Source of the DNA: Pseudomonadota bacterium
GTDB taxonomy: Bacteria; Myxococcota; JACRCW01; JAFGSX01
NCBI GenBank assembly: GCA_043821645.1
Contig: JBDRCO010000046.1
Span: forward strand, 32,001 to 96,000
Direction of reading: 5' to 3'
Length of the DNA: 64,000 bases
The position numbers were made by a program, and so were the translations under genes. The notes beneath the pieces are model-generated. The model did not search any database and was not told where the DNA came from. It saw only the letters and a list, made by a program, of their open reading frames with translations. Below, piece by piece: positions 3-24,100 of the stretch. Position 1 is the stretch's first letter; each line of letters starts with the position of its first letter.

Positions 3-1547
3 CTCACCGTCGACGCCAGCACCGTCGTCTACCGCCGCGACTACAGCGCCACCGCGCGCCAGCTCAACCGGGTCGCGCTGGCCACGCCGGGGGTCGAGGT
101 CAAGATCAACGGCGATGGCACGGCCAATGGCGCCCAGGTGTACCGGGCCGCGCTGGCCAACGCGGGGCAGACCGTGATCTTCGCGGCCGTCAACGACAAC
201 AACAGCCAGACCCAGCTGTACGCGGTCGAACCGGACGCGCCCGGCGTGGTCCAGCGGCTGTTCCCGTGGGATCCGGATCCGGCGGTGCTCACCACCTGGT
301 CCTTCGAGGTCCTGCCGGCCACCAACCAGCTGCTGTACCGCGGCTACCAGGATGGCGCCTGGCTCCTGTTCCAGACCCCGCTGGACACCCTCGGACCGCC
401 GGTTCAGGTCGACCTCGCGCCGGCCACGGCCGTGTTCGAGCTGCTGGCCACCTCCCCCAGCGGCGAGCACGTGCTGTTCCACGGCGTCAGCGGGAGCACC
501 AGGCACCTGTACCTCAAGAGCCTGACCCGCAACGAGCCAGCGGTCGAGCTCAGCGCCGCGACGGTGGCCTCCTCGTACACACATCAGTTCTCGCCCTCGG
601 GGCGCTACGTCGCCTTCGTCGCCAGCGGCAGCCCGGCCCGCGCCTTCCTCGCCGACACCGCGGACCTGGCCAGCGGCGCGGTCGCCCTCACCCCAGCCGC
701 GCTGCCGGACCACCTGCCCCTCTCCATCGAGAACGGTACCCCGGTGTCGACCCAGGGGAGCCGCCAGGTCGTGTTCTCGCCGGACGAGGCCTGGGTGTAC
801 CTCGCCTACGACGAGACCTACGCCGCGCACTTGAAGATCGTGCGCAAGCCACTGCCCGCGCTCGACGTCGAGACGGTGGTGAACGGGCCTGTCGTCGACG
901 GGGACGCGATCGCCACCTGGGCGCTGAGCGGCGACGGTGGCCACGTCGTCTACCAAAAGCGCAGCTTCGATGGTCAGACCAGCACGGCGGACCGGCTCTA
1001 CGTCGTCGACGTGGACGCCAGCGTGGGCAGCGAGCGCTTGCTGGGCCCGGCCTTCCCGCATGGCTCGCCGGGCGTCCAGAGCTACCAGCTGCTGGGTGGC
1101 TTCGTGGCAATGCGCGCCACCGACGCCCCTCCCAGCGGGACCAACCTGCACCTCGCGGCTCTGGACGGCGCGACCCCGGCGTGGACCGTCAACGCCGCGC
1201 TGACCAGCGAGAACTATCTGGCGTTCCTGGGGGTCTCCACCATCGGCGCCGCCACCTACGTGGCCTACACCGCGCAGCAAGACGGGGACGCGGCAGCGCG
1301 TGTCTACATCGCGCGCCATGATGGCGAACAGGTGCGGCGGGTCGCCGTCAGCCCGGGTTCACCGGACAGCCCGCACGCCGCGGTCTCGGCCGACGGGCGC
1401 TGGCTGTGGTCGGTGCACGCCGCGGCTGGCATCAGCGATGGCCTGCATGTCACGGCGCTGTCCGATCCGGCGGCGGCGCGTCTGCGCATCGGCGGCGTGC
1501 CCATCGCCAGCGGCATGGCCGACCTGCCATCGGCCAGCCTGCCCTGA
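3..1547 (+). CDS. TolB/PD40-like beta-propeller protein (5'-partial)
   Basis: Frame of ORF 138..1547 is open back to base 3; repeated blade motifs FSPSGRYVAF, FSPDEAWVYL, LSGDGGHVVY, VSADGRWLW. Confidence 0.7.
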   Translation, partial: LTVDASTVVYRRDYSATARQLNRVALATPGVEVKINGDGTANGAQVYRAALANAGQTVIFAAVNDNNSQTQLYAVEPDAPGVVQRLFPWDPDPAVLTTWSFEVLPATNQLLYRGYQDGAWLLFQTPLDTLGPPVQVDLAPATAVFELLATSPSGEHVLFHGVSGSTRHLYLKSLTRNEPAVELSAATVASSYTHQFSPSGRYVAFVASGSPARAFLADTADLASGAVALTPAALPDHLPLSIENGTPVSTQGSRQVVFSPDEAWVYLAYDETYAAHLKIVRKPLPALDVETVVNGPVVDGDAIATWALSGDGGHVVYQKRSFDGQTSTADRLYVVDVDASVGSERLLGPAFPHGSPGVQSYQLLGGFVAMRATDAPPSGTNLHLAALDGATPAWTVNAALTSENYLAFLGVSTIGAATYVAYTAQQDGDAAARVYIARHDGEQVRRVAVSPGSPDSPHAAVSADGRWLWSVHAAAGISDGLHVTALSDPAAARLRIGGVPIASGMADLPSASLP

Positions 1548-1590: not shown

Positions 1591-2100
1591 TCAGCGGGAG
1601 TCGTCGCCGGGTGGGGTGTAGCGGACCTCGACGATGGTGAACAGGGTCTCGCCCTTGGGCCGCTTCACCTTGACCTCGTCGCCCTCTTCCTTGCGCAGCA
1701 GGGCGCGCGCCATGGGCGAGTTCATGCTGATGTAGCCGCGGTCGGCGTCGCTCTCGTCCGGGCCGACGATGCGGTAGGTGGCCTCGTTGCCGTCCTCGTC
1801 CTCGAGCGAGACCCAGGCGCCGAAGAAGACCCTGTCCTGCTGCCGGGGCACCTCGGTGACGACGGTGAGCTGGTCCAGGCGCTTGCTCAGCCAGCCCAGG
1901 CGGCGGTCGATCTCGCGCAGGCGTTTTTTGCCGTAGATGTACTCGGCGTTCTCGGAGCGATCGCCCTGGGCCGCGGCCTCGCCGACCTCGCGCGTGACCT
2001 TGGGGCGCTCGACTTTCCACAGGTACTCGGCCTCGCGCGCCAGCCTCTGGTGCCCCTCGGGGGTGATGTAGACGGTGCTCTTTTCGTCCAAGGGACTCAC
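1591..2100 (-). CDS. greB: Transcription elongation factor GreB
   Basis: [55 protein letters not shown] start overlaps murA stop (GTGA). Confidence 0.93.
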
Positions 2101-3386
2101 GCTTCGTCGGAGATGCGCTCGATGCGCGCGCCCAGTCCCACCAGGCGTTGCTCGATGGCTTCGTAGCCGCGGTCGATCTGCTCGACGTTGAGGATGCGGC
2201 TCTGGCCCTTGGCGGCGAGGGCGGCGATGAGCAGCGCCATGCCGGCGCGGATGTCGGGACTCGACAGGGTGGCTGCGGAGAGCGGTGACGGGCCAACCAC
2301 TACCGCGCGGTGTGGATCGCACAGCACGATGCGCGCACCCATCGAGATCAGCCTGTCGACGAAGAACAGGCGGCTTTCGAACAATTTTTCGTGGATGAGC
2401 ACGGTGCCGCTGGCCTGGGTCGCGGTGACCAGGGCGATGGACGTCAGATCCGCTGGAAAACCCGGCCACGGTGCGTCGTCGATCTTGGGGATGGCGCCAC
2501 CGAGGTCGGCCTGCACCTCCAGACGCTGGCCGCCGGGCACCAGCAGATCCTCTCCCTCGCGCACGGTTCGCACACCCAAGCGTCTGAAATCCATGAGTAT
2601 TTTACGCAGGTCCGTGCCGCCCACGCCGCGGATACGCAACTCACCGCCGGTGACTGCGGCCAGGCCCATGAAGGAGCCGATCTCGATGTGATCGGGACCG
2701 ATGCGGTGCTCGACCTCGCCGTGCAGCGCGCCACCTTGCACCCGCAGCACGTTGCTGCCCACGCCGTCGATGCGTGCGCCCATGGCCTGCAGCAGGTGAC
2801 ACAGACCCTGCACGTGGGGCTCGCAGGCCGCGTTGTAGATGATGGTCTCGCCCTCGGCGGCAGCCGCGGCCATGACCGCGTTCTCGGTCGCCATGACGCT
2901 GGCCTCGTCGAGGAAGATCTCGGCGCCCTTGAGCGGGCCGCGCACGCTGAGCACGTACTCGGCACCCACCTCGATGGTGGCACCGAGAGCGGACAGGGCG
3001 AGCAGGTGCGTGTCGACGCGGCGGCGTCCGATGCGATCGCCCCCCGGGCGCGGCAGGCGGATGTGACCGCGACGTGCCAGCAGCGGCGCTGCCAGCAGGA
3101 AGCTGGCGCGGATGCGTGCGCAGAGCTCGGGGTCGGGCTCCTGATCGCCGAGGCTTCGCGGGTCGATGCGGACCGTGTGGGGGTCGAGCCAGTCGACGTG
3201 CGCACCGAGCTTCTCGACGATGCTGATCTGCCAGCGCACATCGCCGATGCGAGGCAGGTTGCGCAGGGTGACCGGGCCCGAGGCGAGCAGGGTGGCGGCC
3301 ACCGCGGGCAAGGCCTCGTTCTTGTTGCCTGCGGGCACCACGGTGCCCTGGATGGGCGCGCCGCCCTCGACCACGAATTCGATCAC
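2097..3386 (-). CDS. murA: UDP-N-acetylglucosamine 1-carboxyvinyltransferase (Asp-type active-site loop)
   Basis: [66 protein letters not shown] before GTG at 3386. Confidence 0.95.
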
Positions 3387-3632
3387 GCTGTTGCTCCTTG
3401 CGTCAGGGCCGCTCCGTCGACGGCGAGCCGAACGTTTGCGCGTGCTGTGCACTGTAGCCAACCTGCGCCAGCGTGTCATCTAGGGGTCGCCGACTCGACC
3501 GGGCCAGCGGCCGGTCCCTGCCGGTCCTGCTCAGGGTCTTTTTCCTGGCGCGATCCTCTTCCCCTCGTCGTTGCGGCGGAGTAGCGTGCCCCCGCTTTTG
3601 TCGTCGCTGCGGCGGCGGCACGGAGAGCGAGA

Positions 3633-5594
3633 ATGTCCATGGACTACGCGCAGGTCGGTCTCAAGGTCGGGCTCGAGGTGCACCAGCAGCTGCTCACCGA
3701 GCGCAAGCTGTTTTGCCGCTGCCCGGCCGGACGCTACACCCGCACCCACGACGGCGAGGTGCTGCGCCACATGCGGCCCACCCTGAGCGAGCTGGGCAGC
3801 TACGACGGCACCGCGCTCATGGAGTTCAAGACCAAGAAGAACATCATCTACCTGCTGCACAAGGACAACGTCTGCACCTACGAGATGGACGACACGCCGC
3901 CCTTTCTGGTCAACCAGCAGGCCATCGACATCGCCATCGAGCAGTGCCTGATGCTGGGCTGCGACATCGTCGACGAGGTGCACATCGCCCGCAAGCAGTA
4001 CCTCGACGGCAGCATCCCCACCGGCTTCCAGCGCACCGCCATCGTCGGCGTCAACGGACGCTTGCCCTTCGCGGGTCGCGAGCTGTCCATCATCCAGGTC
4101 AGTGTCGAGGAGGACTCGTGTCGGGAGGTCGAGGATCGCGGCCACCTGATCGTGTGGCGCGCCGATCGCCTGGGCATGCCCCTCATCGAGACGGTGACCG
4201 GACCCGACCTGCGCACTCCTGACGAGGTGGCCGAGGCCATCCTGCTGGTGGGCCGGGTGTGCCGCTCCACCGGCCACGTGCGTGTGGGCCTGGGCGCCAG
4301 CCGCCAGGACGTCAATGTCTCCGTGACCGGCGGCACCCGCGTCGAGATCAAGGGTGTACCCAAGGCCTCGTGGGCACCACGGCTGGTGCACTGCGAGGCG
4401 GTGCGCCAGGTCAACCTGCTGGGCCTGCGCGATGAACTCGCGCAGCGTGGATTCAAGACCGAGGCCGACCTGCAGCTGCGCTCGGTGGACATCACCCAGC
4501 TCGTCGACGCCAGCGAGCTGACCATGCTGCATCGCGAGGAATGGGAACGCTGGGTCGAGACCAGCGGTCGGCGCGCCGGCTTCGAGCTGGGCCGGGGCGA
4601 CTACTGCGTGCGCGCGGTGCGCCTGGTTGGCCTGCAAGGCACCCTGAGCTGGCCCACCCAGCCCGACCGGACCTTTGCCAGCGAGCTGGCCGGGCGCATT
4701 CGCGTCATCGCGGGTCTCGACCAGCAGCCCGTGCTCATGCACAGCGAGAAGTGGCCCGAGCACCACGGCTCGGTCCGCCTGCTCAAGGAGATCCGGCGCC
4801 GCCTGCGCTGCGGTCCCCAGGACAGCATCGTGGTGGTGTGGGGACCCCACGACGACACCCTGAGCGCGGTCGAGGAGATTCGCCTGCGCTACATCGACGC
4901 CCTGGCCGGTGTGCCTGCCGAGACGCGTCAGCCCTTCGTCGACGGCAGCACGGACTTCGAGCGCATCCTGCCCGGCCCCGATCGCATGTACCCGGACACC
5001 GATAGCCCACCCACCCGGGTGCTGCGCGAGCGGGTCGAGGGTCTGCAGCGCGGTTTGCCCGAGCCTCCCTGGACGCGCGAGCAGCGCTACAGCGAGGCCA
5101 GGCTGCCGCTCCCCGTGCTGCGCTTTTTGATCCGGCGTGGGGGCGCGGCGCTGGTCGACGAGGTGGTGCGCGTCACCGGCGCGGACCTGCGCTGTGCGGG
5201 GCTGTTCTTCGGCGCCCAGCTCAAGGGGCTCGGGCGCAGCGGTGTCGACATCCCCAAGATACCGGTGGGGCGCTGGTGTGAGCTGTTCACCGCTTTTGCG
5301 GCGCAGCCCGTGCTGTGGCAGGCCTGGCAGCCCATGGTAAGGGCCCTGGCGGCCTTCACGGATGCCAGCGTCGACGATCTCATCGCGCGCCAGGGCCTGG
5401 GCACGGCACCCGAGGACTGGCACCAGCATGTTCAGCGAGGCGTCAAGCAGGCGCGGATCGAGAGCTACGATCCGGGTGATCGCGGCCGACTGCACCGCCT
5501 GGCCCTGGGGCGCTGCATGGATCTGCTGCGCGGGCGCGTCGACGCTCGCGAGGTGAGCGAGGCCGTGAAGGCCGCGATCGAGGTGAGCGCATGA
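3633..5594 (+). CDS. gatE: Glu-tRNA(Gln) amidotransferase subunit E (archaeal-type)
   Basis: MDY..GLKVGLEVHQQL..KLFCRCP, DGSIPTGFQRT, EEDSCR, DRLGMPLIE, RQDVNVSV..RVEIKGV, GatE-type insertion (QPDRTFASELA, LMHSEKWP), GVPAETR..LPGPDRMYPDTD; 653 aa, longer than GatB. Confidence 0.93.
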   Translation: MSMDYAQVGLKVGLEVHQQLLTERKLFCRCPAGRYTRTHDGEVLRHMRPTLSELGSYDGTALMEFKTKKNIIYLLHKDNVCTYEMDDTPPFLVNQQAIDIAIEQCLMLGCDIVDEVHIARKQYLDGSIPTGFQRTAIVGVNGRLPFAGRELSIIQVSVEEDSCREVEDRGHLIVWRADRLGMPLIETVTGPDLRTPDEVAEAILLVGRVCRSTGHVRVGLGASRQDVNVSVTGGTRVEIKGVPKASWAPRLVHCEAVRQVNLLGLRDELAQRGFKTEADLQLRSVDITQLVDASELTMLHREEWERWVETSGRRAGFELGRGDYCVRAVRLVGLQGTLSWPTQPDRTFASELAGRIRVIAGLDQQPVLMHSEKWPEHHGSVRLLKEIRRRLRCGPQDSIVVVWGPHDDTLSAVEEIRLRYIDALAGVPAETRQPFVDGSTDFERILPGPDRMYPDTDSPPTRVLRERVEGLQRGLPEPPWTREQRYSEARLPLPVLRFLIRRGGAALVDEVVRVTGADLRCAGLFFGAQLKGLGRSGVDIPKIPVGRWCELFTAFAAQPVLWQAWQPMVRALAAFTDASVDDLIARQGLGTAPEDWHQHVQRGVKQARIESYDPGDRGRLHRLALGRCMDLLRGRVDAREVSEAVKAAIEVSA

Positions 5595-6985
5595 CGACCG
5601 CCGATGCACTGAAGGGGTACCGGGGTCGGGCCCGGGAGCGCTTGACCGAGCTGGGCGTGCGCGTGTGGAGCGATGTGCAGCTCACCAACGACGCGGGCAG
5701 CGTGTTCGAGGGCGTGATCCTGCCGCGCAGCGTGACCTTCGACGACCTGCACGTCGTGCTCAAGCTGAAGACAGGCTACAACGTGGGCGTTCACGTCGAC
5801 CGCATCACCAAGGTGACCGAGGTCGGATACAAGGAAGCCCACTACAAGATTCCCGAGCAGGAGTTCCCCAGGCGCGACAACCTGCCCAGCGTGACGCTGC
5901 TCGGCACCGGCGGCACCATCGCCTCGCGCCTGGACTACCGCACCGGCGCGGTGATCCCGGCCTTCACACCGGGTGAGCTGTATGGCGCCGTGCCCGAGCT
6001 GGCCGACATCTGCAACCTGACCACCAAGAAGCTGTTCGGGGTCTTTTCCGAGAACATGGCGCGCGAGGAGTACATCACCCTGGCGCAGGCCATCGGCGAC
6101 GAGATCGCGGCCGGCGCCGACGGCATCGTCATCGGCCACGGCACCGACACCATGGGTCATACCGCGGCCATCTTGTCCTTCATGGTGCAGGAGCCGCCGG
6201 TCCCCATCGTCATGGTGGGCAGCCAGCGCTCCAGCGACCGGCCATCGTCGGACGCGGCGCTCAACCTGATCCACGCGGTCAACACCGCGGCCTACAGCGA
6301 CATCGCCGAGGTCATGATCAGCATGTTCGGTCCGACCTCGGACCGCTACGGCCTGCTGCATTGCGGTACGCGCTGCCGCAAGATGCACAGCTCGTATCGC
6401 TCGACCTTCCGCACCGTCGGCGACATCCCTCTGGCCACCGTCAGCCGCGATGGCTTCACACCCATCACCGAGATCTACCGCCACCGCGACAAGACGCGGC
6501 GGGTGAAGATCGACGCGGTGTACGACGACCGCACCACCATTCTCTATTACTACCCGGGCATGCACCCCGACCTCGTCGACGGCCTGGTCGAGAAGGGCTA
6601 TCGCGGCATCGTCATCGCCGGCACGGGTCTGGGCCACATCAACAAGCCCCTGTACCCAGCCATCAAGCGCGCGGTGGACGCCGGTGTGCACGTCGTCATG
6701 ACCGTGCAGACCCTGTGGGGCTACGCCCAGATGTACGTGTACGAGACCGGCCGCGAGCTGCTGAACCTGGGCATCGTGCCCCTGGACAACATGCTCCCCG
6801 AGACCGCGCTGATGAAGCTGAGCTGGGTGCTCGGGCACGAGGGCCTGTCGCGCGACGAGGTCGTGCGCATGATGCAGACCTCGATCAACCGCGAGATCAC
6901 GCCCCGCGAGCCACACAACGGCTACCTGATCATGCAGGGCGGCCTGCCCGAGATGGACGAGTACATCGCCACCCACTGGAAGTGA
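5591..6985 (+). CDS. gatD: Glu-tRNA(Gln) amidotransferase subunit D (archaeal-type glutaminase subunit)
   Basis: GatD N-terminal domain (EGVILPR..VLKLKTGYNVGV) plus asparaginase core GTGGTIASRLDYRTGAV, HGTDTM, SQRSSDRPSSDA, RKMHSS, GTGLGH, VYETGRELL; ATGA overlap with gatE. Confidence 0.94.
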   Translation: MTTADALKGYRGRARERLTELGVRVWSDVQLTNDAGSVFEGVILPRSVTFDDLHVVLKLKTGYNVGVHVDRITKVTEVGYKEAHYKIPEQEFPRRDNLPSVTLLGTGGTIASRLDYRTGAVIPAFTPGELYGAVPELADICNLTTKKLFGVFSENMAREEYITLAQAIGDEIAAGADGIVIGHGTDTMGHTAAILSFMVQEPPVPIVMVGSQRSSDRPSSDAALNLIHAVNTAAYSDIAEVMISMFGPTSDRYGLLHCGTRCRKMHSSYRSTFRTVGDIPLATVSRDGFTPITEIYRHRDKTRRVKIDAVYDDRTTILYYYPGMHPDLVDGLVEKGYRGIVIAGTGLGHINKPLYPAIKRAVDAGVHVVMTVQTLWGYAQMYVYETGRELLNLGIVPLDNMLPETALMKLSWVLGHEGLSRDEVVRMMQTSINREITPREPHNGYLIMQGGLPEMDEYIATHWK

Positions 6986-6994
6986 CCGGGAGAC

Positions 6995-7011
6995 CGCGAG
7001 GCTGCCTCGCG
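6995..7011. terminator. GC-rich hairpin between convergent gatD and hydrogenase large subunit gene
   Basis: CGCGAGG-CTG-CCTCGCG in a 27-nt gap between convergent stops; no U-tract. Confidence 0.35.
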
Positions 7012-7012
7012 A

Positions 7013-8290
7013 TCAGTGCACCGAGCAGCTGATGCAGGGATCGTAGGCCCGCACCAGCATCTCGCACAGCAGCGTGGCCTTGCTGTCGTCGACGCCCTGC
7101 CCGGCCAGCCAGGGTGCGAGTGCTTGCAGGTCGAGGTGGATGTTCTTGTTGTTCTGGGTGGTGGGGATCACGCAGTCGGCCTTCTGGATGCATCCTTCGC
7201 CGTCGATCTCGTAGCAATGGTAGAGGATGCCGCGCGGTACCTCGACCGCGCCCACGCCGCGGCCAGCGCGAGGCTGCACCGGCACCTGGATCTCGCCCCG
7301 GGGATTGGCCAGCACCTCGTCGATGAGGCGGATGGTGTCGTGGGTGACGTGCACGCACTCGACCAGCTGCGCCACGCTGTTCATGTAGGGGTTGTGGCAG
7401 ACCGGCTTGAGCCCAAGCACGGCCGCGGTTTGCCGCGCCTCGTCGTGCAGCAGCGCGAAGTTGTTGTTGATGCGTGCCAGGGCACCCACCCCGAAGCTCG
7501 GCCGTGACAGAGAACACCACTTGCTGGTGTTGTCGTCGGTGACCACCTCGTTGGTCATGGCCAGGTACTCGGGCTCCTGCTTGAGCACGCCGTCGCTGGA
7601 AACCAGGTCGCCGCCAATCCAGGGGAAGCTGGCCGTGCCCTTGAGCGACACCCACTCGGTCTCACGCACGAAGTCCGGGATCGCGAAGGTGCTGAACAGG
7701 CCCACCACCGTGGCCTCGAGATCGGCCAGCGAGCTTTCGAGCTGATCGCGCAGGCGCTTGAGGGTGTCGCCATCCGGGCGCCGGGCCACGCCTCCGGGAA
7801 CCAGCGACACGGGGTGGGTGGTGCGGCCTGCGATCACGTCGCACAGCTGGTTGGCCATGCCCTTGAGCTGGCGCGCCAGGTGAAACACCTCGGGGTTCTT
7901 CTCCTGGAGCGGGAGCGCCGAGGGCAAGCCCAGGAAGTCCGGCGCGGCCAGGAAGAACAGGTGCAGGTAGTGGCTCTGCAGGGTCTCGCCATGCTTGGCG
8001 AGCAGCCGCAGCGTGTCCGCCAGGGGTGGGGTCACGATTCCCATCGCGTGCTCGGTGGCGCGCAGGCTGCACAGCGCGTGCCCGATCGAACAGATGCCGC
8101 AGATGCGCGCGGTGAGCTGGGCCGCGCTCGAGAAGTGCTTGCCCCGCAGCATGACCTCGAAGTAGCGGGGGGTCTCGACCACCTCCCAGCGCGCCTCGAC
8201 CAGCTGTCCATCCCGGACCTGAACGTGGATGTTGCCGTGGCCCTCGACCCGAGCCAGGTGATGCACATCGACGTTGAGATCGACCTTCAT
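7013..8290 (-). CDS. hydA: [NiFe]-hydrogenase group 3b large (alpha) subunit
   Basis: ARVEGHG, L1 motif RICGICSIGH, EVPRGILYH, IPTTQN, L2 motif DPCISCSVH at the C-terminus; ATG at 8290 overlaps upstream stop. Confidence 0.93.
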   Translation of the reverse strand: MKVDLNVDVHHLARVEGHGNIHVQVRDGQLVEARWEVVETPRYFEVMLRGKHFSSAAQLTARICGICSIGHALCSLRATEHAMGIVTPPLADTLRLLAKHGETLQSHYLHLFFLAAPDFLGLPSALPLQEKNPEVFHLARQLKGMANQLCDVIAGRTTHPVSLVPGGVARRPDGDTLKRLRDQLESSLADLEATVVGLFSTFAIPDFVRETEWVSLKGTASFPWIGGDLVSSDGVLKQEPEYLAMTNEVVTDDNTSKWCSLSRPSFGVGALARINNNFALLHDEARQTAAVLGLKPVCHNPYMNSVAQLVECVHVTHDTIRLIDEVLANPRGEIQVPVQPRAGRGVGAVEVPRGILYHCYEIDGEGCIQKADCVIPTTQNNKNIHLDLQALAPWLAGQGVDDSKATLLCEMLVRAYDPCISCSVH

Positions 8291-9081
8291 GCGCTCACCT
8301 CGTGCTCGGGACTGCCCATCCTGGTGGCGGGTGGCTGCGCCGTGAAGCCGCCAAAGAACCCCAGACGCTCGCCAAGTTCCGTGGTGGAGAACCCCCTGTC
8401 CAGGGCGATGCGGCAGAACTCGTCGACGTTGGCTTCGTCGCTGGGGCCGCGGCAGCCCCAGCACGCCAGGCCGCCGGCGGGACAGGGCGCATCGCAGCCG
8501 CCGCGGGTGATCGGACCCAGGCACAGCTGACCGCGGTCGAAGGCGCAGGTCACGAAACGTTGCTTGCACTCGACGCAGACCGGGTGGCGCGGGAAGCGAA
8601 AGGGGACGCCCCACACCAGGTGCTGCACGATGCGCTCGACCTCGCGCTTGCTCACCGGGCAGCCCGGTATGGCGAGGTCCACCGCCACCACCTCGTGCAC
8701 CGCGCGCACGGTCGTCGTGGGTTTGGGGTGATCGCCGTACACGATGCGGTTGGCCTCGTCCAGGTCATAGGCGTTCTTCTGTCTGGCCACCCCGCCGAAG
8801 CAGGCACAGGCGCCCAGGGCCACCAGGGTCTTGGCGCGCGCGCGCACCCGGGTGAGGCGTTCCACCTCGTCCGCGCGGGTGATGGCGCCCTCGATGAGCG
8901 CCACGTCGTAATCGTCACCGTGGGCCGAGCTCACCTCGCGAAAGTCCACCACCTCGATGAGGTCGAGGAAGTGGTGCAGGCTGTCCTCCTTGTTGGCCAG
9001 CTGCAGCTCGCAACCCTCGCAGGAGGTGAAGTCGAACACCGCGATCTTGATCTTGTTGGGCGTGATCCCCAGGTAGCGCAT
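8287..9081 (-). CDS. hydD: [NiFe]-hydrogenase group 3b small (delta) subunit
   Basis: FTSCEGC, IEGAI, GACACFGG, IPGCP, CVEC..CLGPITRGGCDAPCP..CWGCRGP; no Tat signal. Confidence 0.92.
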   Translation of the reverse strand: MRYLGITPNKIKIAVFDFTSCEGCELQLANKEDSLHHFLDLIEVVDFREVSSAHGDDYDVALIEGAITRADEVERLTRVRARAKTLVALGACACFGGVARQKNAYDLDEANRIVYGDHPKPTTTVRAVHEVVAVDLAIPGCPVSKREVERIVQHLVWGVPFRFPRHPVCVECKQRFVTCAFDRGQLCLGPITRGGCDAPCPAGGLACWGCRGPSDEANVDEFCRIALDRGFSTTELGERLGFFGGFTAQPPATRMGSPEHEVSA

Positions 9082-9109: not shown

Positions 9110-10066
9110 TCAGATCGCTTCTTTCAGGTTCATCACGGTCCAGAAATCGAACACCGGACCGTCCTGGCACACATAGGTCGACCCCACGTTGCAGCGGCAG
9201 CACTTGCCCATGCCGCAGTGCATGCGCCGCTCCAGCGACACGAACATGCGATCCATGGGCATGCCGAGCTGGCTCAGCCGCTGGCACACGAACTTGAACA
9301 TCACCGGTGGTCCGCACACGATGGCGTAGGTGCGCGCCATGTCCAGGTCGAGGCCGTCGAGCAACTTCGTCACCATCCCGACGTGCCCCGTCCACTGCGG
9401 CGTCGGTTTCTCGACCACGATGTCGAGCTGCACGCCGTCGACGCGGCGCCACTGCTCGTACTGGTAGTCGAACAGCAACTCGTCGGGCTCGCGGGTGCCG
9501 TACAGGATGTGCACCTGCTCGTAGTCCGAGCGGTTCTCGGTGACCGCGTAGATGGGCGCGCGCAGCGGCGCCAGCCCCAGGCCGCCGGCAATGAGCAGCA
9601 CGCTGTGGCCCTTCATCTTGTCCAGGGGAAAGTGCGAGCCAAAGGGTCCGCGGAGGCCGACCCGGGTACCGCGCCGGGCCCGATGCAGCACGCTGGTGAC
9701 CAGGCCAGCGTTGCGGATGCACAGCTCGAGGTAGCCCTTGTGGGACGGCGAGCTCGAGATGGAGATGGCCACCTCGCCGTAGCCTGGCACCGCGACCATC
9801 ACGAACTGCCCGGGCAAGAAGCCAAAGCGTTGCCGCTCCTGATCATCGTCGATGCGAAGGTGAAACAGCTTCTCCTTGTCGGTGAGCGGGACGATGGAGG
9901 TGATGGTGGCCGGGTACAGGCGGTCCACGTGCTTGAGCCGGCTGCGCCGGTTGTAGTCCACCGGCTCGAGCATCTCGGTCTCGCGCTTGATGTCGAAGGC
10001 GTGCAGCACCGGAGTGTGGGGGGCCGAGGGCGGGGTCCCGGGCTCGCGCGGCGTGGAGCTGTTCAT
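9110..10066 (-). CDS. hydG: Group 3b hydrogenase gamma subunit (FAD/NAD(P)-binding, 2Fe-2S)
   Basis: [65 protein letters not shown]. Confidence 0.9.
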
Positions 10067-11106
10067 GTGCGATCCTCGTCTTGCAGGTCGCGGATGACCT
10101 CGGGCGGGTTGATGCCGGCCAGACAGGCGCGACTGCAGCGGCCGCAGCCCACGCACTTGGGCTCCTCGAAGCTCTCCACGAAGCCGCGGTGCTGGTGGTA
10201 GTAGCGGTACTTGAGCCGCGTGCCGCTCTTGGGCCTGAAGTTGTGGCCGCCCGCCACCTCGGCGAAGTCGATCAGGTTGCACGAGTACAGCTGCTTGACC
10301 CTGGCGCTGCTGCCGTGATCCAGGGCCACGCGCTCGTGGACGCCGTAGCAGTAGCAGGTGGGGCAGACCATGGCGCAGGCTCCGCAGCTCAGACACTTCT
10401 GCCCCCAGCGCGTCCACACCTCGCTCTCGAACTCGATGTCGAGCAGGTTGGGCAGGTTCTCGGTCTGCACCACCGTGTCGAAGCCCTCGCTGTTGTCGCG
10501 GCGCACGCGGAGGTACGCGTCGCTGTCCTCCTCGGTCACATCGCGGGGGCCGACCTTCTGCAGCATGGTGAAGGCGCGGTCCGAGGCGATGGCCACGAAG
10601 TAGCGGTCCCCGAGATCGGTGAGGAACAGGTCGAAGCCATGGGTCGCGCTGTCCGCGCCCATGGAGCGGCAGAAGCCGCCCTTGCAGGGCTTGTGGTCCA
10701 GGCCCACGACGAAGGTGTTGCGCCGCCGCGAGATGTAATAGGGGCTGGGGAAGAAGTCCCGGGCCAGCACCTTGTCCAGCTTGACCAGCGCGTTGATGTC
10801 GCAGGCATGCAGTCCGATCAGGGCCCGCGGCTGCAGGCGGTAGCGGATGTCCTGCTCCCAGCCGTCGTCGTCAAAGCGAAAGGTCGACAGGTTCTCCTTG
10901 AAGGGCAAGAAGTAGGTCTTGGCCGAGTACTCGGTGGTCTCGTAGTCCAGGTCCAGCGCGTCGAAGCTGGTCACGGGCAGGAACTGGTGAATGGGCTGCC
11001 CGTCGCCGCGCTGGCCTATACACCTGGGGCCAATGACCTCGTTGGTGCTCAGGATCAGCTCGACCAGGTTGCGAAACAGCGGCTTGTCCAGCACTCGGAA
11101 CAGCAT
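10063..11106 (-). CDS. hydB: Group 3b hydrogenase beta subunit (4Fe-4S dicluster, AsrA-like)
   Basis: [44 protein letters not shown]; start MLFRVL at 11106 with GGAG upstream. Confidence 0.9.
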
Positions 11107-11256
11107 GACGAACTCCACCGCGAGTGTGAACCCAGCACATCGTCCCAGGCGACAACCTGCAATGGGCAAATCAATGCATCTGGGCTCGCAATTATTGTGA
11201 TTCCGATGGCCGATCGTGATGCATGGTACACTGACCGTCATCAGCGTGGAGCAATT

Positions 11257-13347
11257 GTGACCGCACCCGCTCCCTCGACCCTGTGCCGTGCCCTGGGCAT
11301 GCTGGGCGTGCTCCTGGGGCTGGCTTGCCCCGGTCCCTCGCCACAGATCGTGTGCCGCGACGATCGCTCCTGCCCGACAGGGTACTTCTGTGCGCTTCCC
11401 GAGGGCCTGTGTCATCGTCGGGCGCTGCCCGGGGATGCGAGCGCGGGCGACGTCACTCCTGGCGATGCCTCGGGTCAGGATCACGCAGCCCTGGACAGCG
11501 CCGGCGCCGACCTGCTGACCGCCGATGCAGCCAGCACGGATTCGTCCCTGGCCGACGCCAGTGTGGACGAGACGGGTGGCCTGGATCGATCCCCCGCCGA
11601 TGTCACGACCGCGGATTCCTCGGGCAGCGATGTCCTCGCTGGCGACGCCGCGGGTGCAGACCTCACCGGCCAGGATGGGGGTTCGCCGCTCCCCCGCATC
11701 GCGGGTTTGCAGGCGGTCCCGGCCTCGGTGATCTACGGAGCCAGCACCGAGATCCGCTTCACTCCGCACGACGCCACGCAGTGCACGATCGACCAGGTCG
11801 CGGTGCTCATCAACGCGGGCGGGCAGGTCCAGCACAGCCTGGCACCCAGCGCCACCCGTCACATCGAGGTGTGCTGCACGGGGCCCGGTGGCCAGGTCTG
11901 CGCCAGCGTCGAGGTCGCGGTCGAGTGCACCAACCCGCAACCCGTGAACGGGCCTGTGATCATCCACGATGCGGCCGAGCTCGTGGAGCTCGGAAACTCC
12001 GTCTCGGGCTGCTGGAGGGTGCAGGGCCACCTGACCATAGGGCCCAGTGCCAGCCTCTTCGACCTGGCCCCTCTGCGGGGCCTGGTCGAGGTCACGGGCA
12101 CGCTGGACATCACCGACAACGCCGACCTGTCACACCTCACCGGGCTCGAGGCCCTGCACACCGTGGGCGGTGCGCTGTACCTGGGGCACTATGACAATGC
12201 GCAGGGGGTTCACCTGGGCAACGACTCGCTGCAGGACGTCCACGCCCTGAGTGGCCTGCGCCAGATCGGCGGCTCGCTCACCGTGCAGCTGTCGCCGGAG
12301 CTCGGCAGCCTGCACGGCCTCGAGGAGTTGCAGACCCTGGGCGGTCACCTGCTGGTGCAGCACTGCAACGACCTCGGCGATGTGCGGGCCCTGCACCGGC
12401 TACAGAGCATGGGCGCCTACCTCTGGCTCGAGGACCTGCCCCGGCTGACCAGCCTGGAGGGCCTGCAGAACGTGAGTCAGGTGGGCACGGACCTGGGGCT
12501 GGTGAGCCTGCCACAGCTCACGGATCTGCGCGCACTCGAGTTCCTGCACGCAGACCTGCACAGCCTGTACGTGACCAGCTGTCCGCTGCTGCAGGACCTC
12601 AGCGGACTGCAGAACCTGCGCATCTCGCAGTGGCTGCAGATCCGAAGCAACGACGGCCTGGTCACCCTGCAGGGCTTGCCGCAGACCGTCAGCGGCGTGC
12701 TCACCCACGTCGAGATCTACGATCATCCCCTGCTGCAGAGCCTGGACGGCCTGGACAGCCTGGTGCACGTGCGCCTGGACCCCGCCCGCGTCTGCACCCA
12801 GGCCCGCCGCACAGCCAAGAGCTGCGCCGGCATGCTCGCGATCCATGACAACGCCAGTTTGCCCGGGCTCGAAGGGTTGAACGCCCTGACCCAGGTCGAC
12901 GACTCCCTGGTCATCGAGGACAACGCCCGCCTGCAGCAGGTGGTCGCACTGAACGCCGTGCTGCACATCGGCGGCGAGCTCAGCGTGCAGCGCAACCCCC
13001 AGCTCATCAGCCTGGACGGGCTGCACCAGGTGGGCGAGATCGCGGCCGGCGTGATCATCGAGGATAACGACGCCCTGCTCGAGCTCGCCGGTCTCAGCGG
13101 CCTGGCGGTCCTGGGTGGTGAGGTCGGGCAGACACCCGACCTGTACTCCGGGGGCCTGGTCATCAACGGCAACCTGGTGCTGCACGATCTCGGGCTGCGT
13201 GCGGATTGCACCTTTGCAGGCAGCTTGTTTCAGATCACCAACAACGCCGCCCTGCCAACGGCCACGGCCTCGGCTCTGTACAGCGACTGGTGTGAGGGGA
13301 CCGGGTTGAACTGTCCGTTTGCGCTGATCGCGAACAACGGGCCGTGA
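11257..13347 (+). CDS. Lipoprotein with Cys-rich motif, Asp/Ala-rich linker and receptor-L-domain/LRR-like repeats
   Basis: Lipobox LLGLAC, CRDDRSCPTGYFC..C, repeats LxxLxGLxxLxxVGGxLxI; GTG start after GGAG (start uncertain). Confidence 0.75.
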   Translation: MTAPAPSTLCRALGMLGVLLGLACPGPSPQIVCRDDRSCPTGYFCALPEGLCHRRALPGDASAGDVTPGDASGQDHAALDSAGADLLTADAASTDSSLADASVDETGGLDRSPADVTTADSSGSDVLAGDAAGADLTGQDGGSPLPRIAGLQAVPASVIYGASTEIRFTPHDATQCTIDQVAVLINAGGQVQHSLAPSATRHIEVCCTGPGGQVCASVEVAVECTNPQPVNGPVIIHDAAELVELGNSVSGCWRVQGHLTIGPSASLFDLAPLRGLVEVTGTLDITDNADLSHLTGLEALHTVGGALYLGHYDNAQGVHLGNDSLQDVHALSGLRQIGGSLTVQLSPELGSLHGLEELQTLGGHLLVQHCNDLGDVRALHRLQSMGAYLWLEDLPRLTSLEGLQNVSQVGTDLGLVSLPQLTDLRALEFLHADLHSLYVTSCPLLQDLSGLQNLRISQWLQIRSNDGLVTLQGLPQTVSGVLTHVEIYDHPLLQSLDGLDSLVHVRLDPARVCTQARRTAKSCAGMLAIHDNASLPGLEGLNALTQVDDSLVIEDNARLQQVVALNAVLHIGGELSVQRNPQLISLDGLHQVGEIAAGVIIEDNDALLELAGLSGLAVLGGEVGQTPDLYSGGLVINGNLVLHDLGLRADCTFAGSLFQITNNAALPTATASALYSDWCEGTGLNCPFALIANNGP

Positions 13348-18146: not shown

Positions 18147-21100
18147 TCAGGGTGTGGCAGGGGCGATCTGCAGCGTGTGGCCCGCGGAGTAGGCGGCGAA
18201 TTCGGGTGCGTACATGGGTTGCACCGTGGCCGGACCGACGCGGAAGGTGCCGGCCATGGCCGCGCGGATGCGGTACTTGAAGGTGTACTCGCCGACGGGC
18301 AGGCGCTCGAAGAAGAAGTTGGTGCCGCTGTCGCGGATCTCCTCGTACCAGTACAGGCCCAGGTTCCACTTGTGTCGGCTGGTGTTGTCGACGGGCTCGA
18401 AGCCGGCGCCCCGGGGATCCCGCAGGTGCACGTACTCGAGGGCGTGCTTCGAGGTCAGCGAGATCTGCACCTCGACCTCGTCGCCAGGCTGCAGCTTCTG
18501 CTTCTCGGCCAGGGGCTTGAGCACCACCTCGCGCCCCGACTTCTCGCGCAGGAAGTACTTCCGGGTCACACCCAAAAAGTCCCCGCGCGCCTCGTCGGGC
18601 AGCTTCTCGGTCGAAAAGTGCCAGGTCGAGGAGGCGAACATCACGCCCTTGGTGTCCTTCTCGACCTTCACCGTCGAGGACGTCTTGGGCTTGACGTCGG
18701 GTCCCGCGATCACGATCTGGTTCTTCTTGCCCGTGTACTGGTCGGGCTCGAAGACGAAGGTCTTCTCGACGTCACCGACCTGCACATGCGCTTCTTCGCG
18801 CACGCCAAGAGCCCCGGTGGCCTTGAGGTAGTGGGCCAGGGAGTACAGCACCTCGGCGGTGGCGCGGGTGCTTTTCCAGTGGTTGAGCTTCTTGTTCAAG
18901 AACAGCCACACCACCAGCCCGTCGAGCTTGGGGTTCTGCGGTTCCAGCTCCATCAGCGTGCGCAGGGCAAAGGCGTGGGTCTCGATGGTGTCGTTGTACC
19001 ACAGCCAGGATCGGTCCTCGGGCGCCCAGTAGGTGCCCTGGTCCTCGCTGGACTTGGCCGAGTCCATGACGCTTTGCCACACCAGACGCGCGTCGCCTGC
19101 GCGATCCATACGCTTGAGGGTCAGCGCCAGGTAGCCCTTGAGGTAGGGCGCGTGCTGCTTCCAGTGCTTGAAGCTGAAGTCGAGCATGGTGCGGCGATCG
19201 GCGTCGGAGAAGGCACCGCCTGTCCACGCCGTGTCGGGGAAATTGCCTATGGTGTAGTTCAAGAAGCTCACGAACTCCCAGCAGCCGTCGTGGGCCATGC
19301 AGGTCTTCACGTCGTCGCTGAGGTAGTGAGCCTTGAGATAGCCAAAGGCGCGCTGCACCACCTGCTGCGGCACGTCGACGCCGAACTCGACGGCCTTGCT
19401 CAGACCGTAGACCAGGTACAGGGTGATGTAGGGCGAGGGTGGGCCGCCCGGGAACCAGGGGAAACCACCCGAGGAGGTCTGGCTCTTTTTGAGCTTGCTC
19501 AGAGCGCCGTCGCGCTGGGCCGTGGCGATCGTGGGATCCAGCACGCGCAGCAGCTCGAAGCCCGGGTCGCGGCCGCCCTGGGCCTGCTGCAGCCAGGGTG
19601 TCTCCTCGAGGGCCATCTTGCGATTGGGATCCGGCGCGTCCCACTGCTCGAGCTGGGTCGAGCGCTCGCTCATCTTCTTGGCCATGGTGGCCACCGCCGG
19701 GTACTGGCCATACAGCGAGGTGAGGATGCCCGTCGACACGAAGCGGTTGAGGGTCTGCTCGGTGCACTCGTAGGGGTAGTTGACCAGGTAGGGCAGGCTG
19801 TCGAGGACGGCGTAGAACAGCTGCCCGTCGAGGGTGACCACCAGCTGCTCGTCGATGCGGCTGGGGTCGTCGTTCTGCTTGAGATCCTCGAACACCATCT
19901 CGCGTCGCGCCTTGTCCTTGAGCACCACGAAGCGCGACTGCATCAGGTGCATGCGGCTGGGCAGGATGGGCAGGGCGCGCTGCTCGCCGTCGACGCGCTT
20001 GCCCGCGCGAGCCACCACCTTGACCGCGATGCTGCCGACGCGCGCCGGGGTCTTCAGGGTGAAGCTCAGGTTGCTGCCACCCTGGGGTTTGACCGCAAAA
20101 ACCAGGCCGCGCGCCTGCTTGGCGTCGAGGCCGAACTCCTTGAGCAGGCTTTCGTTGCTGGCCGGATCGAAGATGTCCAGGTCCAGCTCGCCGCGCAGCT
20201 CCTCATCCGAGGCGTTGTTGACCACGACCTTGAGCACGGCCTGGTCGCCCTCGCGCAGAAAGCGCGGCAGGTAGGGCCTGACCATCAGCTCCTTGACCGT
20301 GCGGGCCTCCTTCTTCAGCGAGCCCGACATCAGGTCCTTGGTCACAGCGTGCACCCACACGTTCCACGAGGTCACCGAGTCCGGAACCTCGAACCTTATG
20401 CTCGCGGTGCCGTCGTCGCCGGTGACCAGGTGTGGCTCGAAGAACGCGGTCTCGGAGAAGTTCGAGCGCACGGGCGCGGCCTCGTCTGCCGGTGGAGGCG
20501 GTGGTGGCGGGGGCGCATCGCGTCCGTCTTTGTCTTTCGCGCCGTCGTCGCTGCGCGAGAGTTCTTCGGCCGGGGCCTCGGCCAGTCTCTCGTCGCCGGC
20601 CAGGGACTCGGACTTGGCCATGAGCTTGCGCGCCGGAGCTGCCGTCGAGGGCGAGGGAGGCATCAAGCCTTCGCGGTAGCGCCCGCCGTGACCGCCGCGC
20701 GCCCCCGGTCCACCAATGCCATAGCCCGACGGGAAGTTGAGTCTGTCGCCGTACAGCGAGGGGTAGCCCGGCGGCGAGCCGAAGCTGTAGCTGCGCACCC
20801 AGGTGGCGCCAACCTGCCCGAGGCTGGTGCGCAGACCGACGACACCCGTGTGCGAGGGATAGAGCGCCAGGGGGGAGGGCGGATTGTGGGGGGCAAAGCT
20901 GTCGAGGCTGCGGTCGTACATGTAGGCCAGCACCTCGGCGGCGGCCACCGCGCTGTCCTGACCCGCGGGACCCGTGACTTTGACCGTCCAGGTCTCTTTC
21001 TGACCCGGTTCCAGCTTGTCGCGGAAGGTCGTGAGCTCGAGGTCGAGTTGCTTGGAGTCCCAGGGGACGAAGATGGAGGCGGACTCCTGGATCAGCTGGT

Positions 21101-24100
21101 GGTCGTGGACCAGCCACAGGGTCACCCCGAACCCTCCGCGGTCCTTCTCGGTGATGGGGATCTCGATCAGCGCCCCATCGCTGCCAGCCACCATCTCACG
21201 GCGCTCGCTGCGCGAGCCGCGGCGAAAGATGTCCACGATCACCCGCTGCTTGTCGAGGCCGCTCAGGGCGAGGATGCGCGCGGTGCCGCCGACCTGCACC
21301 GAGCTCGACTCCACCAGCAACAGCTCGGGCAGGTGCAGATCGTGGGAGCCACCGCTGACCACGAACTCGTGGGCCAGCTGGTAGCGCGCGCCGAAGGCGT
21401 CCTGGGTCTGGTAGCGCAGGCGATAGGCTCCGGGCTTGAGCATGCCGAGCTCGAGGCCGGAGATGCCCTTGGCATCGTGGCTCAGCTCGCCGCGCGAGAT
21501 CTCGGCGCCGTCGGACCAGCGTCGCAGCTCGGCCTGGGCAGTGTAGCCGGTGGCCCAGCGCGGTCGCTGGCCGTCGCCCGTGGTGCGCAGGGGCTTGACG
21601 TCACCACTGGCCCGGGGCTCGGGCAGGGGCAGGTCGGCAGGGCTCAAGGTCTTGTCCGGCTGGCGCAGGGCCAGCAGGCGCCACGAACCAGGGCCAGCCT
21701 GGGGCGCGCCGTCGAGGTCGGTGCGGACCACCCGCAGGTTCACGGCCTGACCGGTGCGCTCGAACGCGTGCTCCTGCTCGACCCGGGCCTCCACCGCGAC
21801 GAAGCCCAGGCGGAAGGACCGGCTCGCCGTTCGCGTCTCGCCACCCTCGTCGATCACCTCGACGCTGACGCCGTAGCGGTAGGTCACGCCTGCCTGATCG
21901 GTGCCGTCGCGCTCGTCCGCGCGCGGGGTGAAGCGCAGGGTGAACGCGCCGCTGTCGTCGAGACTGCTGGTCCCTGCGGCCACGGTCTGCGGTGCACTGC
22001 GGTTGCCGCCCCACCAGCTCCACCACCACGGATACTGCGGTGTGCGCTGTACGCGCCAGCGCACCTGGCCGCTGGTCACGGGCAGGCCAAAGTAATAGCG
22101 CGCCTCGCCACGAACCTCTGCCTCGCGATTGAGGCGCAACGCCTCGGCGGGCTCCTTGAGCGTGGCCTCGAAGGTTGGTCGCTTGTACTCCTCGACCTTG
22201 ATCGCGGCGTAGCCGCTGAGCGACGAGCGCAGCTGCCAGTTGCCGAGGAGGCGTCCGGTCGGGATGTCGAACTCGCCCGAGGCGGTGCCAAAATCATTGG
22301 TGGTCAGTTCCTGGGTGGCCACCACCTGATGGTTGGGGTCCATCAGGTTGATGCTGACCTTCCGCTTGGTCGCCACCTTGAACTGACCCTCGTCCTGCTG
22401 GCCGCTGTAGACCAGGACCTTGAACTTCAGCTTCTGCAGGGGGCGGTAGATGCTGCGGTCAGTGTACAGGAGCGAGGCGGTCACCTCCCCTGGCTTGCCT
22501 GACTGGTAGAAATGATAGGAGCCCGGATCCAGCGCTGCCTCGCCGCCGCTGCGCGCCAGCACGAAGAACGAGTCGCCGGGCTTGCGCACAAAGCGCACCA
22601 GGCCATTGGCGCCCGTTCGCTCGCGCGCGACGCTGTGGTGTCGCTTGCGCCAGTCGTACTGGTACAGAAAGACCTCGACACCGGCGCGCGGACGTCCGCT
22701 GGAACCGGACACCGCCATCACCTCGAGCTTGTCGCCCGCCTGTTGCTGGGACACCAGCTCGAGGTCGCCGAGGATCACGGGCACGGCCTGGAGCTTGTTG
22801 CTGCCGCCGGAGAAGTCCTCGCGAGCCGAGGCGATGATGATGTAGAAGCCCGGCTCGCCCAGGGGTGGCGTGACGAAGCTGCGGTGCATGCGGAAATCGG
22901 TGGTGGCCTCGAGCTTCTCGCTCCACTTCTTGAGGGGTTTCTTGTCGACCAGCACCTCGAGCTGACGCTGGTCGAGGTACAGGTTGTAGTCCTGCTGGGA
23001 TTCGAGGTGGGCCTTGAGGTCTAGGCGGTGGGCGCGGAAGTACAGGGTGGTCAGGTTCTTGTAGGTCACACCCACGGCGCGCCGCTCGACACCGTCCTGG
23101 CGCATGGCCTCGAGGTTGTAGTCGGGCAGCTCGATGACGGCGGCGATGTGGCGGCCTCGCTGGCCCCCCACGCTGTCGGGAAAAGCCTCGACGGCCTGCA
23201 AGGCGATGCCGCGGGCGCGCACCAGGGCGTCGGGAGCCGGCTCCTCGCGCACCATCTCGGCCAGGGTGGCCATGCCCAGGGCCCACCAGGGTTTGCCGTC
23301 GACGCCCTTGAGGGCCGCGCGCAGTGCGTCGCGGAGGCGCGCACGATCCGCGTCGCCGGAGAAATGGCGGTGCAGCAGCTCCAGTCGGGTGCGGCGGGCT
23401 TCGAACGCGGCCTCGGGCTCCTGGCGACCCTGGTGCCAGCGCTCGAGGTCATCGAGCACGGCCGCCAGCTTGAGCAGGGGGTGGACCGCGGCGTCGAGCA
23501 AGCCCTTGTCGTCGGGCAAGCTCCCCTCGGCGTCGGCAGCGCCGCCACCGATGAGCAGGGGGAGCGAGAGCTGGTAGATCTCGTTCTGGTGTTCGGGGCG
23601 CCAGCGTCCGCTGTCCGCGAACTGATCGGCGCGCAGGTAGCTCAGGGTGTCGCGCAGCGTGGGCCGGATGTGTTGCGGATAGTTGTTGCGGGCCACGTAC
23701 TCGCTCAGCTTCTCGACGGCGGAGGAGCCCAGTTGCTCGCGCAGGGGCCACAGCTCCTGCAGAGCGCGCTGTGCCTCGCTGTGGATCTGCTCGTGGGTCC
23801 AGGCCTTGAGGTCCACCGCGGCGGTGGACTCGACCTTCTCGCGCTGGCGGATCTCCCAGCTGTACACCTGGGCGTACTGCTCGAGCAGCGAGGCGTAGTA
23901 GAGCGACAGGGTGGTGTGGCTGAGCAGCTCCTCGGGCCACTGCTGTTCGCGCAGGAAGCGCACGCTGGTCTCGTAACCGTGCAGCGCGCTGCGCAGCTGC
24001 ACCCAGCGGATCAGGCTACGAACCTGCTGCGGGCCATCCTGGGTCTGTCGAGCCTTGGCTAGCAGCTTCTCGACCAGGGTCGAGGCCTCCTCGTACTTCT

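Follow-up and report, generated by a model that had tools for sequence, protein, structure and literature searches.

The 64,000-nucleotide stretch analyzed here (positions 32,001 to 96,000 of the 151,559-bp contig JBDRCO010000046.1, assembly GCA_043821645.1; contig C46 below, the whole stretch being called the window) comes from a bacterium named as Pseudomonadota and placed by GTDB in the Myxococcota. It encodes a complete gatE-gatD operon for the two subunits of GatDE, a tRNA-dependent amidotransferase that is regarded as archaea-specific. Nothing sets the pair apart within the very large bacterial clade of GatDE to which it belongs, a clade named in the databases and neglected in the literature. 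We infer, with moderate confidence, that the window GatDE acts as an accessory Glu-tRNAGln amidotransferase, encoded by an intact and long-resident operon of a bacterial clade with archaeal ancestry.

NCBIfam profile searches identify the first gene product as GatE, with 460.3 bits against NF003107 (cut-off 456) and 395.3 bits against TIGR00134 (cut-off 319.55). It stays below all GatB cut-offs, the best being NF004012 (128.6 versus 338) and TIGR00133 (109.7 versus 314.8). Residues 3 to 649 align with the solved archaeal GatE chains of Pyrococcus abyssi (PDB ID 1ZQ1_C, residues 8 to 627, E value 4.7e-89) and Methanothermobacter thermautotrophicus (PDB ID 2D6F_C, residues 1 to 615, E value 1.4e-83), giving a layout of a cradle-shaped GatB/E core, an insertion domain around residues 290 to 424 and a YqeY-like C-terminal tail. 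Pfam, at an E value of up to 1e-3, names only GatB_N and neither the GAD-like insertion nor the GatB_Yqey tail, but both regions are covered in the full-length NCBIfam and PDB alignments. GatB of the bacterial GatCAB and GatE are paralogues that share their core fold and their chemistry, and residues 89 to 271 of the window GatE match GatB structures; segments 41 to 77 and 290 to 424, in contrast, have no match in the host genome's own GatB, and the partner subunit is an asparaginase-type GatD rather than an amidase-type GatA. The Mg2+ ligands described in a review for the kinase site of M. thermautotrophicus GatE, His15, Glu157 and Glu184 (PMC2330236), align with H17, E159 and E186 of the window GatE. 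Both glutamates are among the 42 columns that are invariant across 54 GatE rows, and the bacterial clade differs consistently from the archaeal side of this alignment in only 4 columns, so the catalytic core looks unchanged.

The second gene product scores 480.6 bits against the GatD model NF003217 (cut-off 310) and 477.9 bits against TIGR02153 (cut-off 324). Pfam assigns GatD_N (residues 29 to 76), Asparaginase (101 to 287) and Asparaginase_C (316 to 428), that is, an N-terminal GatD domain and a type I asparaginase core, which keeps the Thr nucleophile and the Thr-Lys-Asp triad. The matches to the archaeal chains (PDB ID 1ZQ1_A, E value 5.8e-113; PDB ID 2D6F_A, E value 9.4e-109) span residues 15 to 446, and the motifs GTGGTIAS (105 to 112), HGTDTM (183 to 188), SQRSSDRPSSD (211 to 221) and RKMH (263 to 266) line up with their counterparts in both. 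The protein also passes the asparaginase subfamily model TIGR00519 (345.2 versus 260.5). A free-standing asparaginase of the AnsA type was rejected, since the AnsA equivalog NF006998 yields only 117.4 bits against a cut-off of 376, the GatD_N domain is present and the GatD models score higher (480.6).

Both reading frames are open, all catalytic motifs are intact, and the gatE stop codon overlaps the gatD start codon in an ATGA, implying translational coupling (Table 1). The initial annotation, made from the letters alone, had described two ATGA-coupled open reading frames (ORFs) with GatB/E catalytic motifs, a GatE-specific insertion, a GatD barrel with asparaginase motifs, and murA and greB on the flank in a bacterial host. 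This description was right on all points checked: the ORFs lie where it had placed them on the plus strand, the metal ligands and motifs align with those of the solved archaeal enzymes, the insertion has no counterpart in the host GatB, and murA and greB score above their cut-offs. The profile comparison it had proposed decides for GatE and GatD, with curated cut-offs passed, and not for GatB with a plain asparaginase.

The window pair is like the archaeal GatDE of M. thermautotrophicus (2D6F) and P. abyssi (1ZQ1) in its subunits and domain order, and shares with them the full-length alignment, the Mg2+ ligands and the Thr, Thr-Asp and Lys motifs. By analogy with the solved archaeal enzyme, GatD would hydrolyze glutamine or asparagine to release ammonia, which would reach GatE through a tunnel. 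GatE would bind the acceptor end and the D-loop of the misacylated tRNA, phosphorylate the side-chain carboxylate with ATP and Mg2+, and then amidate it. The most likely substrate would be Glu-tRNAGln, formed by a single glutamyl-tRNA synthetase (GluRS) that also charges tRNAGln, with Asp-tRNAAsn as the main alternative.

A word-indexed search with the window GatE scored 8000 candidates, and all 8000 reached an E value of 1e-20 or better. The best 120 of these 8000 are 68 to 75% identical, and all named ones among them are proteins from bacterial metagenome-assembled genomes (MAGs) of Eisenbacteria, Acidobacteriota, Vicinamibacterales, Deltaproteobacteria and Pseudomonadota, labelled as GatE or, in one case, as gatB. 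An exhaustive profile-free search of 50%-identity representatives gave 622 clusters at an E value of 1e-30 or better. In species-representative genomes, with one genome per species, at least 598 related stretches turned up, and at least 589 were confirmed. Among the best 80 of these at least 589 loci, 78 are bacterial by title and represent about 20 phyla, including Acidobacteriota, Myxococcota, Planctomycetota, Ignavibacteriota, Bacteroidota, Zixibacteria, WOR-3, Cloacimonadota, Fermentibacterota, Calditrichota and Omnitrophota, among others, and the remaining two are titled Thermoplasmatota archaea (40 to 42% identical). These numbers, and database labels that already read GatE, contradict the distinctiveness of this lineage implied by the initial annotation.

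The window pair is typical of this bacterial clade (annotated as Glu-tRNA(Gln) amidotransferase subunit GatE or GatD in MAGs of Acidobacteriota, Myxococcota, Ignavibacteriota, Bacteroidota, Zixibacteria and other groups) and has the same gene order. Of 86 loci, 67 have gatD after gatE in the same orientation; 18 loci show no gatD, several of them at contig ends, and in one locus the two genes are divergent. GatE is 63 to 73% and GatD 74 to 84% identical to copies from Acidobacteriota and Myxococcota, and another genome of the same family (G001) keeps the pair, at 69% identity for GatE and 80% for GatD. That GatDE is regarded as archaea-specific, as the initial annotation had put it, agrees with statements in reviews that call it archaea-only (PMC9499178, PMC2330236), the one from 2008 terming it an "archaeal signature protein" (PMC2330236). 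We found no description of GatDE in bacteria in the literature searched, where the exact phrase "bacterial GatDE" had no match. The host of the window pair is no archaeon, as its genome carries murA, greB, a bacterial GluRS, glutaminyl-tRNA synthetase (GlnRS) and GatA-GatB.

The origin of the clade was addressed with two trees. One is a FastTree phylogeny whose 192 rows comprise the window sequence, 77 ORFs from the loci, 113 representatives and the GatB of the host, and the other a quick IQ-TREE phylogeny (LG+C20, posterior mean site frequency model) of 54 hand-picked GatE rows, with support values from a short search. Five Acidobacteriota rows (L029, L031, L042, L046 and L087), probably ORFs in the wrong frame, sit on a branch of length 3.98 in the FastTree phylogeny and were excluded from the 54-row tree. 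In both trees all named bacterial rows fall into one clade with full support (100, SH-like or Shimodaira-Hasegawa approximate likelihood ratio test [SH-aLRT]) and a stem of 0.41 to 0.44. In the 54-row tree this clade, which holds the window-type sequences apart from archaeal GatDE, comprises 42 rows, with an SH-aLRT value of 100 and a stem of 0.44. There, a branch with support 93 has all 27 named bacterial rows on the same side; their sister group consists of four rows, including both Thermoplasmatota loci, and the next row outside is a Heimdallarchaeota protein. Three of the 11 outgroup rows are named, all archaeal (Thorarchaeota, Parvarchaeota and Thermoplasmatota). Names are available for only 5 of 20 queried clusters, leaving most archaeal-side rows unlabelled, and the placement of the root depends on a small number of labelled rows. 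The window itself is placed in a subclade of intermixed Acidobacteriota and Myxococcota rows (support 99). Judged from these sequences, the topology would fit one old transfer from archaea to bacteria, followed by exchange among bacterial phyla. The inter-domain transfer first suggested for this operon, for which a phylogeny had been proposed as a check, is thus in line with the trees as regards an ultimately archaeal origin, the bacterial clade being nested among archaeal GatE.

The Thermoplasmatota locus L074 is truly archaeal, being flanked by a glycerol-1-phosphate dehydrogenase gene (497 bits, cut-off 413). The genomes of L074 and of the second such locus, L076 (G195 and G196), carry a GatE of the bacterial clade together with GlnRS matches above the cut-off (733 and 728 bits). 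GlnRS has been acquired by no archaeon according to a review statement, and bin contamination is a possible source of the two matches.

A rival explanation is a recent lineage-specific transfer from an archaeon, or a chimera of an archaeal fragment and bacterial DNA created by assembly or binning. In its favor, the assembly (7.07 Mb, 94.7% complete) consists of 140 contigs and has an estimated contamination of 3.95%. The nearest relatives, however, are bacterial and 63 to 75% identical, whereas the nearest archaeal loci reach only 40 to 42%. The composition and codon bias agree with the contig: C46 has a G+C content of 68.5% against a genome mean of 67.0% (standard deviation 1.9), and the G+C content at third codon positions (GC3) is 0.90 for gatE and 0.94 for gatD, against 0.79 to 0.94 for neighboring genes. 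The operon sits 35 kb inside a contig that also carries murA, greB and, further downstream than the hydrogenase genes, a TIGR04551 family gene. Moreover, contigs from public sequencing runs (Logan, short) were placed on window positions 2900 to 7600. The gatD/hydrogenase junction is bridged in three studies besides the best-matching one, by pieces at 6770-7124 (X2) and 6885-7132 (X4), both exact, and at 6914-7136 (X5, two differences), and the murA/gatE junction by an exact 651-bp piece (3198-3848) in X1, which is possibly the source sample. In the non-source runs, the gap between the murA start and the gatE start is unbridged at 3426-3516, and none of the pieces covers the operon in full. The chimeric join that had been named as a concern did not show up, and a chimera or fresh archaeal insert is effectively excluded.

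The host genome encodes other routes to glutaminyl- and asparaginyl-tRNA. It has a GlnRS on contig C63 (728.9 bits, cut-off 425.8), an asparaginyl-tRNA synthetase (AsnRS) on C23 (454.7 bits), adjacent gatA and gatB genes (C43:30797-33663; 565.4 and 527.5 bits, respectively), a single GluRS of bacterial type (C6:5907-7304, 477.3 bits), one bacterial-type aspartyl-tRNA synthetase (AspRS) on C113 and three AsnB-like genes, while the profile search gave no match for AsnA. ARAGORN finds 48 tRNA genes in the assembly, one without clear identity. Both tRNA-Gln genes (CUG on C23, UUG on C134) carry the bacterial U1-A72 pair, and no tRNA-Asn gene is among the 48, probably an assembly gap. A setting without GlnRS, in which GatDE and a non-discriminating GluRS are the only route, is therefore not what this genome presents, and GatDE is formally redundant here, because GlnRS, AsnRS and GatA-GatB are also encoded. 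The initial annotation had proposed an archaea-like Gln-tRNA pathway in this lineage and a survey of the genome for amidotransferase and synthetase genes. The survey found gatA-gatB, GlnRS and the single bacterial GluRS, and a pathway of archaeal type in place of the bacterial ones does not agree with these genes, with AsnRS and the U1-A72 pair, or with the unmatched archaeal-type GluRS.

To see this genome in context, we sampled 151 genomes of the phylum with at least 90% completeness, including the host genome (G000). GatE occurs in 15 of them (14 over the cut-off), GatB in 128, GlnRS in 111 and AsnRS in 148. All 15 GatE carriers have both GlnRS and AsnRS, and GatB is found in only 4 of them (G000, G037, G080 and G087) versus 124 of the 136 non-carriers. 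One family, f4, holds 11 of the 15 carriers, which makes the contrast in GatB one of non-independent events; in its 17 genomes GatE is found 11 times and GatB twice. The other phyla were represented by 50 GatE-bearing genomes of unreported completeness, picked from the best 80 loci, of which 40 have GlnRS, 46 AsnRS and 14 GatB. GlnRS without GatB is seen in 29 of the 50, both in 11, GatB only in 3 and neither in 7, where contigs may be missing. Since nearly all carriers have GlnRS and AsnRS, GatDE is rarely, if ever, the sole formal route. Most often, GatDE is accompanied by both direct synthetases while GatCAB is missing. The window genome differs from most of the clade in having GatA-GatB in addition.

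One carrier outside the phylum, an Ignavibacteriales genome (G178, locus L059), shows no match for GlnRS, GatB or AsnRS, so that either parts of this MAG are missing or both amide aminoacyl-tRNAs are made through GatDE alone. In an 11.6-Mb genome of the same phylum as the host, the GatE match (G080:C41:40096-41994) contains one in-frame TGA, which could be a pseudogene mutation, a sequencing error or recoding.

Profiles of the asparagine synthetases AsnB (TIGR01536) and AsnA (TIGR00669) were run against 29 genomes from the phylum. One or the other is found in all six f4 genomes without GatE and in 7 of the 11 f4 carriers; the other four carriers (G015, G031, G049 and G095, from two genera) have no match for either enzyme or for GatB. 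Among genomes with neither GatE nor GatB, 11 of 12 have AsnA or AsnB, G098 being the exception. These numbers are small and the genomes related, but they hint that GatDE is able to stand in for asparagine synthesis.

The gene neighborhoods were compared by all-against-all clustering of the ORFs from the 86 loci. Apart from gatD and shadow frames, no neighbor is conserved, the next largest cluster being found in 8 of 86 loci, and the murA, greB and hydrogenase neighbors of the window are not common to other loci. A Pfam scan of the upstream neighbors (73 proteins) found a glutamine synthetase gene immediately 5' of gatE in 3 of 72 and an aspartase/fumarase-like gene in 2 of 72. A tRNA-Gln gene precedes gatE in 2 of 86 loci, in related MAGs, and single loci have asnA or the GlnRS gene next to it. 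Taken together, the gene context in relatives points to amide amino acid metabolism in general. Downstream of the window gatD, a hairpin read from the sequence possibly acts as a bidirectional terminator between the convergent genes. The coordinates of all these features are given in Table 1. Elsewhere in the window, two ORFs of 2099 residues (18147-24446, minus strand) and 469 residues (138-1547, plus strand) have gene-like codon bias and no NCBIfam match at an E value of up to 1e-5.

Table 1. Features of the gatE-gatD operon, its flanks in the window and notable neighbors of gatE in related loci (window coordinates unless a locus is named)
Feature	Position	Strand	Description
greB	1591-2082	-	NF002506, 228 bits (cut-off 188)
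murA	2097-3479	-	TIGR01072, 447 bits (cut-off 392.7)
Shine-Dalgarno-like GGAGAG	3622-3627	+	Putative, read from sequence; 5 nt 5' of gatE ATG
gatE	3633-5594	+	ORF, 653 aa; predicted tRNA-dependent kinase/amidotransferase subunit
gatE/gatD ATGA overlap	5591-5594	+	gatE TGA shares bases with gatD ATG; GCGCATGACGACC
gatD	5591-6985	+	ORF, 464 aa; predicted ammonia-releasing subunit
Putative two-way terminator hairpin	6995-7011		G+C-rich (CGCGAGG-CTG-CCTCGCG), read from sequence; between convergent gatD and hydrogenase genes
NiFe-hydrogenase genes	7013-8614 and 10063-12030	-	Resemble sulfhydrogenase alpha/beta, well under equivalog cut-offs; convergent with gatD
Glutamine synthetase	L104:5374-6939; L106:5913-6941; L066:113-1678	Same as gatE	Upstream of gatE; Krumholzibacteria, a bacterium, and Fermentibacteria, respectively
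cNMP-binding domain fused to aspartase/fumarase-type lyase	L093:4939-6834; L048:4826-6697		Lyase_1 and FumaraseC_C; Rhodothermaceae and Melioribacteraceae, respectively
tRNA-Gln(CUG)	L034 and L084, 6801-6872	-	About 130 nt 5' of gatE, opposite strand; Deltaproteobacteria-titled MAGs
asnA	L139 (G059:C540), 1611-2555	Divergent from gatE	Adjoins gatE; Pfam AsnA, E value 1.5e-104
GlnRS gene	L140 (G037:C53), 4755-6341	Divergent from gatE	Adjoins gatE; TIGR00440, 734 bits

Several observations weigh against an accessory Glu-tRNAGln amidotransferase in this organism. The host GlnRS and the GatA-GatB pair could do the same job, and direct synthetases accompany GatDE throughout the phylum sample and in most carriers of other phyla. 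Archaeal GatDE reads the A1-U72 pair of tRNAGln, as stated in reviews (PMC9499178, PMC2330236), which the host tRNAs replace by U1-A72, and the archaeal-type, non-discriminating GluRS that partners the archaeal enzyme had no match in the profile search of the host genome. The neighboring murA, greB and NiFe-hydrogenase genes offer no functional hint, and the literature searched yielded no activity data on any bacterial GatDE. Arg358 of Thermus thermophilus GluRS, described as a marker of tRNA discrimination (PMC2978374), was mapped through an alignment with PDB ID 1J09 and scored in 30 GluRS sequences. Arg is found at this position in 29 of the 30, including 5 from control genomes with GatB and without GlnRS, whose GluRS should be non-discriminating, and the only sequence without it is a second copy in G009. 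The marker was rejected, as it does not separate the controls and says nothing on the host GluRS.

The observations on GatB lend themselves to another explanation, to which we give a clearly smaller but still appreciable weight, namely, that the bacterial clade is a replacement of GatCAB adapted to U1-A72 tRNAs, which took over its job beside GlnRS and AsnRS and amidates Asp-tRNAAsn, or maybe both tRNAs, making asparagine and perhaps glutamine on the tRNA. The scarcity of GatB among GatE carriers in the phylum sample, and above all in f4, is what such a replacement would leave behind, as are the 29 carriers from other phyla with GlnRS and without GatB. The four f4 carriers without AsnA, AsnB and GatB, set beside the six non-carriers of f4 that all have AsnA or AsnB, and the asnA gene adjoining gatE in G059, point the same way. 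The U1-A72 pair is shared by bacterial tRNAGln and tRNAAsn and is read by bacterial GatCAB, according to a review (PMC2330236). There is also a precedent in Thermus, Deinococcus and Bdellovibrio, where GatCAB is retained for tRNA-dependent asparagine synthesis although GlnRS and AsnRS are present (PMC4206432); the window genome likewise keeps an amidotransferase beside both direct synthetases, but the enzyme is GatDE and its asparagine-making role is only hinted at. Yet 7 of the 11 f4 carriers have AsnA or AsnB, and the host genome itself has its AsnB-like genes and GatA-GatB. G098, with no match for AsnA, AsnB, GatB or GatE, implies that members of the phylum can be auxotrophic or use some other route, and the counts are small, mostly from one family and non-independent. 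Archaeal GatDE, moreover, is reported to reject Asp-tRNAAsn, and its insertion domain has been modelled to clash with AspRS (review statements, PMC2330236). This domain is retained here (residues 290 to 424), and only four GatE columns are specific to the clade. We prefer the accessory Glu-tRNAGln amidotransferase.

The formal redundancy of GatDE in this genome could also mean that the pair was recruited outside translation, for example, to amidate a different carboxylate or, in secondary metabolism, a carrier resembling tRNA. The initial annotation had offered repurposing for another amidation as its alternative. We regard this as improbable, as the tRNA-binding parts are full length, the catalytic core is unchanged, and no biosynthetic neighbor recurs among the 86 loci, where the recurrent neighbors are instead glutamine synthetase, tRNA-Gln, GlnRS and AsnA. 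A similarly slight chance, if anything a little lower, is left to a redundant remnant that has fallen out of use in this genome, since other genes cover each step GatDE could perform. Such a remnant would hardly be expected to keep open frames, intact motifs, the ATGA coupling and a GC3 at the top level among its neighbors, and to have a counterpart retained in a genome of the same family.

Reviews up to 2022 hold GatDE to be archaea-only and base scenarios of genetic code evolution on it, while bacterial copies in public genomes number hundreds to thousands. To these the window contributes a clear example of complete redundancy, with GlnRS, AsnRS, GatA-GatB and GatDE together, and the phylum sample adds a pattern in which GatDE is present where GatCAB has been lost; the locus is otherwise ordinary. 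Either these bacteria maintain a second route to Gln-tRNA through a costly two-subunit enzyme, or the enzyme has another task, such as making asparagine on tRNA, and both alternatives bear on the persistence of indirect aminoacyl-tRNA pathways. The asparagine reading would explain why GatDE occurs in genomes that lack GatCAB and in some cases also AsnA and AsnB. If true, it would imply that the substrate range has changed in an enzyme considered strictly archaeal and strictly specific for Glu-tRNAGln.

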